From: a virus
Lineage: Duplodnaviria > Caudoviricetes
DNA: 64,000 bases
Reading direction: 5' to 3' (one strand)
Virus record (IMG/VR): IMGVR_UViG_3300042397_003635
A program made the translations under genes and the position numbers. Shown here piece by piece: positions 26,029 to 27,207 of this stretch (position 1 is the stretch's first letter; every line of letters begins with the position of its first letter). The notes under the pieces are model-generated. The model did not search any database. It was given only the letters and a program-made list of their open reading frames with translations, and had not been told where the DNA came from.

Positions 26029-27207
26029 ATGACTTATACCAACGAAGAACTTGAATTTATTTTTGCACAAGGAAACGCGAAAGTAAACAAAGCTGTTAAA
26101 TTGACTGCTGCTGATAAAAAAGCCGGTGTTAAAATTTTCTGTAAAGAACCGTACGCTCAAGAGATGTACGATCGTTATTTTAGCTCTGAAGCAGGCCATC
26201 CAATGCCAGCTGGAAATAAAGATATTCCAGTAGGAGAAATTAGAACTGTTAGCATTAAGAAAATTGACTTTGCAATGTCAATGGTAGAAATGGAAGATGC
26301 GTCAACTATGACAAGTATCTTTGTTCCATTTAGAGAATTTTCACAAGAACCTTCTTTAAGTCTTTTAAATGAAGATAAAGATCGTAAATACAAAGTTATG
26401 ATCTATAAATCAAATATGAGCGAGATTCTAGGTTCAGAAAAACGTTGTGCTGCTCTTACTCTTAGAGAAGACGTTGAATACTTTGCTAAAAATAATAAGT
26501 GGTTCTACGTTAAAGTGGTTGAACTTATTAAAGGCGGTTACCTTGCAATCTATAAAAACCAAATCAAATGTTTCCTTCCAGGATCTCATGCTGCAGCAAA
26601 CGTAATTAGAGACTTCTCTGAATACTTGCACAAAGAAATTCCAGTTATGGTTGAAAACTTTGATTCAGTTAATAACTTATTCATTGTTTCATACAAGAAA
26701 TACATTAAGGAAACTCTTCCTCAAAAAGTATCTGATCTTTCATTTGGTCAGAAATATACAGGGACTCTTACCAATAATCCATATGATTTTGGAGTCTTTG
26801 TTGAATTCCAAAACTACTATACCGGACTTATACACAAGTCAGATTTTGAAAATGACGCTGCCTTTAGAGAATTTAGTAAAGGCTTACGTTCAGGCGATCA
26901 AATTGACTTCTGGGTTAAAGACGTTGTACAGAAGAAAGGAGATTATCGAATTATACTTACAGTAAATCCGGAATCAATCGATCCAGTTAAGAAAAGCTGG
27001 CAAAGCCTTAAAGATGGCATCGAGGGTCAAACATTAGATTACTCTTATGAAAAGGGTTCTATGAAAATGACTCTACCTGATGAACAAACCATCTCTGTTT
27101 CAGTTTCATCTCAAGTAATGCAAGGTCATTCAGCCGAAGGCCAGGTATTAATTCAAAAAGTTGATGTCTTGAAGCAAAATTTAGGGTTCGAGATACTAGG
27201 TAATTAA
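26029..27207 (+). CDS. rpsA-like: Ribosomal protein bS1-like protein (3-4 S1/OB domains)
   Basis: VKVVELIKGGYL...CFLPGSH...KEIPVMVENFD...NLFIVSYK matches S1 domain 2; GTLTNNPYDFGVFVEF...GLIHKSD matches S1 domain 3. Confidence 0.8.
   Translation: MTYTNEELEFIFAQGNAKVNKAVKLTAADKKAGVKIFCKEPYAQEMYDRYFSSEAGHPMPAGNKDIPVGEIRTVSIKKIDFAMSMVEMEDASTMTSIFVPFREFSQEPSLSLLNEDKDRKYKVMIYKSNMSEILGSEKRCAALTLREDVEYFAKNNKWFYVKVVELIKGGYLAIYKNQIKCFLPGSHAAANVIRDFSEYLHKEIPVMVENFDSVNNLFIVSYKKYIKETLPQKVSDLSFGQKYTGTLTNNPYDFGVFVEFQNYYTGLIHKSDFENDAAFREFSKGLRSGDQIDFWVKDVVQKKGDYRIILTVNPESIDPVKKSWQSLKDGIEGQTLDYSYEKGSMKMTLPDEQTISVSVSSQVMQGHSAEGQVLIQKVDVLKQNLGFEILGN

Follow-up and report, generated by a model that had tools for sequence, protein, structure and literature searches.

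The stretch of DNA analysed in this study (the window, 64,000 nucleotides) is a portion of a large T4-like phage, as indicated by its gene content, which includes genes for a late sigma factor, GroEL/GroES, NrdAB, gp32, tail sheath, UvsX, a helicase and capsid. The phage is a lake phage, and its hosts are likely Flavobacteria-like. When NrdB was compared with bacterial genomes, the best 80 matches were all from Bacteroidota (80/80), nearly all of them from Flavobacteriales, with identities of 76–82%, which places the host, presumably, in or near Flavobacteriales. An intact ORF of the window encodes a homolog of the ribosomal protein bS1 (Table 1). This S1 gene was found between the genes for GroEL and gp32 in 41/41 long IMG/VR loci of close relatives that were compared. 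The nrdAB genes come and go around it in these loci, and the position of S1 is more constant. For instance, the nrdB-nrdA pair was swapped for one reductase-like gene, or was missing, with S1 still in place (L019, L025, L032, L031, L038, L043, and L042). In nearly all close relatives, the gene that immediately precedes S1 encodes 1413 aa, has Cys/Pro-rich stretches and belongs to an unassigned family (window 21731–25972).

The S1 protein of the nearest IMG/VR record is identical to that of the window, and this near-identical record (L149) also encodes bS21, whose gene (1468–1689) lies ~62 kb upstream of the window start. By eye, it adjoins a Nudix-like gene, with a DNA-ligase-like gene nearby, and is outside the capsid module. 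No bS21 was found in the complete relatives that have S1, including one of 271 kb. Thus, S1 is the more constant gene of the two. The 271-kb relative (G005; L280 14686–15052; L272–L273) encodes 26 tRNAs and a tmRNA whose tag looks plausible.

TABLE 1. Coordinates of the S1 gene, its domains and its flanking elements in the window.
Feature	Position	Strand	Remark
Promoter-like element of the S1 gene, non-late	25975..26002	+	AAAAC, 17 nt, TATAAT; leader roughly 20 nt
Phage bS1 homolog, 392 aa	26029..27207	+	Intact ORF
N-terminal anchor, residues 1–62	26029..26214	+	FDW helix ~5–13, K-I-F-C strand 35–38, YAQ helix 42–51
OB domain D1, residues ~64–150	26218..26478	+	Loop 93–96 at the uS2 acidic pocket (model)
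OB domain D2, residues ~155–232	26491..26724	+	Family-specific loop ~185–196
OB domain D3, residues ~238–312	26740..26964	+	RNA-binding face kept
Degenerate fourth OB domain D4, residues ~333–390	27025..27198	+	pLDDT ~90, five strands
T4-type late promoter motif	27217..27224	+	Directly 3' of the S1 stop codon; in 31/34 related loci
Candidate late small RNA	27228..27345	+	Rod: closing stem, bubble, apical stem; support from relatives

The promoter-like element upstream of S1 was recognized by eye in each of the 34 distinct related loci, a few of which had single-base variants of it, and no late motif was found upstream of S1. The element probably acts as a promoter, and S1 would be expressed early or middle in infection.

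A preliminary description of this DNA had proposed a bS1 homolog with tandem S1 domains, a divergent N-terminus and a divergent C-terminus. Domain mapping by HMM agreed with the first part: the ORF was collinear with D1–D4 of bacterial bS1, for which HHalign gave 99.9% and an E-value of 1e-36 in the best register and 3e-22 in a shifted one. The Pfam S1 match covered only residues 253–304, which correspond to D3, and the NCBIfam RpsA models matched residues 64–330 with an E-value of 6e-20. The scores were far under the equivalog cut-offs (71.7 bits versus 368 for the best RpsA-only model; 54 versus 577 for TIGR00717). By these scores, the ORF product is a homolog of RpsA and not an equivalog. 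CvfB, PNPase and GSP13 were rejected as identities, as their scores were much weaker than those of RpsA. The AlphaFold model consisted of a helical N-terminal segment followed by four OB barrels with a mean pLDDT of 83; its top fold matches were ribosome-bound bS1. The best profile match was chain A of PDB 9zcd, a Bacteroidia bS1. The canonical S1 motifs of D4 are lost in the clade of the window and partly kept in distant family members. D1 is present and D4 has the fold of an OB barrel, which makes the C-terminus a fourth domain that has degenerated and not an unrelated tail. The N-terminal extension is probably not a phage invention, as the family profile matches an element of Bacteroidia bS1. 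The sequence and model comparisons thus describe a protein composed of an anchor, D1, D2, D3 and a degenerate D4, in which D5 and D6 are absent.

The RNA-contacting residues of D2 and D3 were well preserved. In the alignment, K168, Y171 and F182 of D2 correspond to K117, F120 and F130 of Escherichia coli bS1, which contact mRNA (PMC10123108), and F254, F257, H269 and R307 of D3 correspond to E. coli Y205, F208, H219 and R254, which are needed for RNA binding (PMC4176380). These counterparts were 96–100% conserved in 77 relatives. According to one report (PMC3858243), D1–D3 are the essential set of E. coli bS1 and accommodate structured mRNAs.

E. coli bS1 docks on uS2 via its N-terminal helix and a loop of D1 (PMC10123108), and bS1 of Flavobacterium johnsoniae possesses an extra aromatic helix, the FDW extension, that contacts uS8 (PMC13000457). 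The N-terminal profile of the phage family matched the Bacteroidia FDW extension (HHalign 78%, E-value 1.9e-5) and did not match other FCB groups or other phyla. The F-D/N/E-W motif was found in 28/113 family representatives. The close clade of the window scored weakly against the FDW element (2.7%, E-value 0.017) and the window protein is without the FDW tryptophan; in its anchor the Bacteroidia-type helix is eroded and the K-I-F-C strand is conserved. By eye, a K-V-K-V-F strand before the anchor helix of some bS1 proteins from FCB groups other than Bacteroidia (Chlorobi-like; L167–L173) resembles the phage strand, but the profile match was not significant.

The complex of phage residues 1–155 with Flavobacterium uS2 was modeled with a score of 0.79, versus 0.00 for the best control; in calibration, the mark of 0.79 was reached by 58/80 solved pairs and 2/110 mismatched pairs. 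The runs shared at least 78% of contacts, and the pLDDT of the partners was at least 77. The modeled interface coincided with the known bS1 site, residues 30–35 and 204–208 of uS2 (compare PMC10123108). On the phage side it was formed by residues 34–38, 42–51 and 93–96, and Y42, A43 and Y47, all of which are among the modeled contacts, were invariant in 77 close relatives. Because structures of bS1 with uS2 already exist, the pass of the model may stem from likeness to them, and it shows likeness and not binding. The equivalent of E. coli Lys43, which enters the acidic pocket of uS2, is Met94 in the window protein; lysine occupied this position in 22% of the close relatives and in 17% of the family representatives. 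Judged from the model and from the preserved anchor and RNA-binding residues, the protein could sit where bS1 sits on the host 30S subunit.

Similar to bS1 of Bacteroidia (RpsA, ~590 aa in, e.g., Flavobacterium), the phage protein has the order of D1–D4, the linkers, the D2/D3 RNA-contact residues, an N-terminus that resembles the FDW extension at the level of the family profile, and the predicted uS2 site. Different from it, the phage protein is only ~20–25% identical, possesses four OB domains in 392 aa instead of six, of which D4 is degenerate, has no Lys43 equivalent, and contains the family-specific D2 loop as well as, in its anchor, a longer linker that includes a conserved strand. Moreover, it sits on a very long monophyletic branch. 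In the D1–D3 tree, the phage proteins formed one clade with those of Lak and huge phages (support 100/100). The free tree placed this clade outside Bacteroidia bS1, with a long branch, and a joint clade with Bacteroidia was not rejected (p-AU 0.24). A Bacteroidia origin of the phage S1 is thus suggested by the N-terminal motif and the host range, and not by the tree.

The S1 family comprised 674 matches at 90% clustering and, with E-values below 1e-10, 442 clusters at 50%; among the best 150 of the 442 clusters, the proteins were mostly 360–420 aa long. The family profile matched a Lak-C1 protein with an E-value of 6e-91, and members were found in Lak phages, in huge phages of 462–735 kb, in LR756500–LR756504 and in LR745206. 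The same Lak and huge-phage genomes gave the best capsid matches of the window phage, and S1 is therefore a marker of a single broad phage lineage.

A previous study of huge phages reported putative rpS1 genes and linked them to SD-less starts and ribosome hijacking, but its authors were unable to confirm a true rpS1 (Al-Shayeb et al., 2020; PMC7162821). Members of the S1 family described here are present in the supplement of that study, and its huge-phage rpS1 belongs to the same protein family as S1 of the window. Phage S1-like genes and the hijacking idea have thus been known since 2020. Different from that study, the domain order, the anchor and a uS2 model were tested here, and a difference in leader position from the hosts was measured; the position of the leader A-tract is the only new hint. 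No functional test of a phage S1-like protein was found in the literature searched. Another phage ribosomal protein, bS21 of freshwater Bacteroidetes phages, has the same host group and the same proposed purpose, but is a different protein and lies beside capsid and protease genes (Chen et al., 2022; PMC9723584), whereas bS21 of the near-identical record does not. Microcystis phage PhiMa05 also carries a bS1, but this is a host-like rpsA beside bL21 and bL27 (PMC13157829). It was not among the tblastn matches of the window S1 protein and is a separate acquisition.

Leaders in the phage were A-rich and without AGGAG, as first described. AGGAG, GGAGG, GGAG or GAGG was found at positions -20 to -4 of 0/45 starts. 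The A fraction of the leaders was 0.55 versus 0.35 at internal ATGs. Flavobacterium leaders are also SD-less and A-rich (PMC6847099). In two Flavobacterium genomes, the SD was equally lacking, the A content at -14 to -1 was the same as in the phage and so was the folding energy, the minimum free energy (MFE) of host starts being -3.7 to -3.9 kcal/mol versus -3.6 to -3.9 kcal/mol for the phage. Because the Flavobacterium leaders are equally SD-less, unfolded and A-rich at -14 to -1, lack of an SD alone cannot give selectivity, and its absence was rejected as a selectivity signal. The earlier proposal that S1 could replace host bS1 to favor phage mRNAs is supported, by prediction, with regard to occupancy of the bS1 site. 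A possible selectivity signal other than SD lack is an A-tract extended upstream.

It had also been proposed that the leaders are masked by hairpins and that S1 gates the folded late leaders, an explanation that we now consider highly improbable. The start regions folded less than the internal-ATG controls (MFE -3.5 versus -8.3 kcal/mol, p 1e-17), which argues against masking. The leaders after late promoters were mostly 9–18 nt long and open. For 7/8 of them the folding z was between +0.7 and -1.6, and the eighth, with a z of -2.5, was folded mainly upstream of its A-rich start region; the long folded stretches stop before the A-rich start regions are reached. At late genes, the weak hairpins surround the late promoter itself and would be lost, with no protein involved, once transcription begins at the late start. 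In read-through transcripts, pairing is possible for a few starts (recA, z -2.1; S1 itself, z -1.9), and the report mentioned above has D1–D3 of E. coli bS1 handling structured mRNAs (PMC3858243), which would fit hairpin opening; the pairing at the S1 start, however, has no single register across relatives. An autoregulatory hairpin over the S1 start was likewise rejected, as the folds were weak (z +2.1 to -2.4) and had no common register in 34 loci.

Several folded stretches were observed elsewhere in the window. Weak inverted repeats, not significant versus shuffles, surround two late promoters, one that serves an 855-aa gene and one that serves the tail sheath gene (window 17974–18000 and 38009–38050, minus strand). 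Inverted repeats over late promoters resemble the T4 late-gene hairpins that are removed by late starts. Between the capsid terminator and a 117-aa gene, after a late promoter, is a folded stretch of ~150 nt (window 53295–53524, minus strand; z -2.5), with the A-rich start region mostly outside the fold; a second late small RNA is a possibility here. The leader of recA/uvsX, which is not a late gene, forms a long hairpin, at the base of which pairing with the first codons is possible (window 40984–41060; z -2.1), and is a possible site of translational control.

From the domain architecture, conservation, synteny and leader composition documented above, we infer that the phage protein is probably a long-diverged four-domain bS1 that acts at the bS1 site on uS2 of the host 30S subunit and supports phage initiation. 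Expressed from an early or middle promoter of its own, it would bind the host 30S subunit at this site and replace or compete with host bS1, and A-rich leaders in single-stranded form would be held close to the mRNA channel by D2 and D3. In this way, and probably together with phage bS21, it would support initiation on phage mRNAs in a Bacteroidia host that is blind to the SD. Within this scheme, docking on uS2 is predicted; the displacement of host bS1 and a preference for phage mRNAs, if any, are putative. Four large Flavobacteriales phages without S1 replicate, and S1 is therefore not required for SD-less phage translation.

An overlapping explanation, which we consider unlikely, is that S1 docks on uS2 mainly to exclude the six-domain host bS1 and thus serves host shut-off. 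Without D5–D6 and a canonical D4, structured or long host leaders would be disfavored and unstructured phage leaders would still initiate, so that selectivity would come from loss of function. The strongly conserved anchor, which adds a strand to the predicted uS2 interface, the degenerate D4, the missing D5–D6 and the open phage starts are all consistent with such blocking. The D2/D3 RNA-binding residues, however, are under strong constraint, and the starts of host and phage are, on average, equally unfolded; both argue against it.

The phage bS1 might also read leaders in a register of its own. The A content at -20 to -15 was 0.56 in phage leaders versus 0.38 in the two Flavobacterium genomes. 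This interval was chosen after that first comparison, and most genomes compared later were new; Bacteroidia genomes stood in for the host. Starts were called mechanically, by taking the first ATG near an in-frame stop, and the 5' portion of the near-identical record was joined to the window solely for counting leaders. The A-tract lay at -14 to -10 in 12 Bacteroidia genomes and in the four large Flavobacteriales phages without S1, and it reached -20 to -14 in 8/9 S1 carriers. The A content at -20 to -15 minus that at -14 to -10 ranged from -0.07 to -0.19 in the 12 Bacteroidia genomes, from -0.09 to -0.16 in the four S1-less phages, and from -0.04 to +0.06 in 8/9 S1-carrying phages (genome-level p 0.0006 and 0.011). 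The upstream A-tract was also seen at overlapping genes. After removal of promoter motifs and nearby stops, the shift persisted in the close clade (p 3e-8 versus hosts; 2e-5 versus S1-less phages), was weak in Lak (p 0.04) and in three huge phages (p 0.14), and was absent in LR756500. For the A-runs, the median center was -16.5 in the close clade, as against -13.5 for hosts and -15.0 for S1-less phages.

As S1-carrying phages share capsid ancestry, presence of the gene and lineage are confounded, and the shift is a correlation over few independent lineages, which makes it a lead and not a result. A reset of the register by the phage bS1, which would read the A-tract at about -20 to -14, 2–3 nt upstream of the -14 to -10 of the host, is accordingly a tentative and rather doubtful idea. 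If true, S1-carrying phages would possess a private initiation code on an SD-blind ribosome. If the phage protein causes the shift, it would stand as a direct example of mRNA selection being altered by a phage ribosomal protein. It has been proposed that bS1 reads the adenines at -12/-13 of Bacteroidia leaders (PMC6847099; PMC13000457), and the phage protein, as a natural bS1 variant, would in that case provide a test of it.

A late promoter follows S1 in most related loci, usually with a folded RNA, and this arrangement bears on another explanation, in which S1 is an RNA chaperone or cofactor off the ribosome with a phage nuclease, a phage tmRNA or the adjacent late small RNA as candidate partners. 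According to PMC13157829, host bS1 serves T4 RegB, Q-beta replicase, tmRNA and transcription. A tmRNA is present in a complete relative, and a new partner surface might be offered by the D2 loop specific to the family. Such a role appears improbable: within the N-terminus, conservation is highest at residues of the uS2 interface, some close relatives lack the downstream RNA, and inspection by eye did not reveal it behind S1 in Lak or in the four huge phages. The link of the candidate RNA to S1 is positional only.

The rod-shaped stretch that usually follows the late promoter in related loci is ~115 nt long (mean z -1.8); the window copy folds no better than shuffles (z -0.46). In the window it ends ~35 nt before the nrdB start (27378), which stays uncovered. 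In distant relatives the candidate RNA shrinks to a short hairpin. No match to 6S-Flavo RNA (RF01685) or to another Rfam family was found at this locus in the window or its relatives, host copies of 6S-Flavo RNA scoring 82–93 bits; the shape of the candidate loosely recalls 6S RNA. A reading of the stretch as a 46-codon ORF is also unlikely: no stop interrupts this frame in the window, but what distant relatives share is the promoter with the closing stem and not a frame that can be aligned. In a subgroup of 12 sequences, the closing stem had compensatory changes in 5/9 pairs and beat slid controls, with the structure being derived from the same sequences. Finally, in four relatives without nrdAB (L042 11162–11310, L044 11170–11330, L051, and L059), the candidate RNA stands alone with its own terminator.
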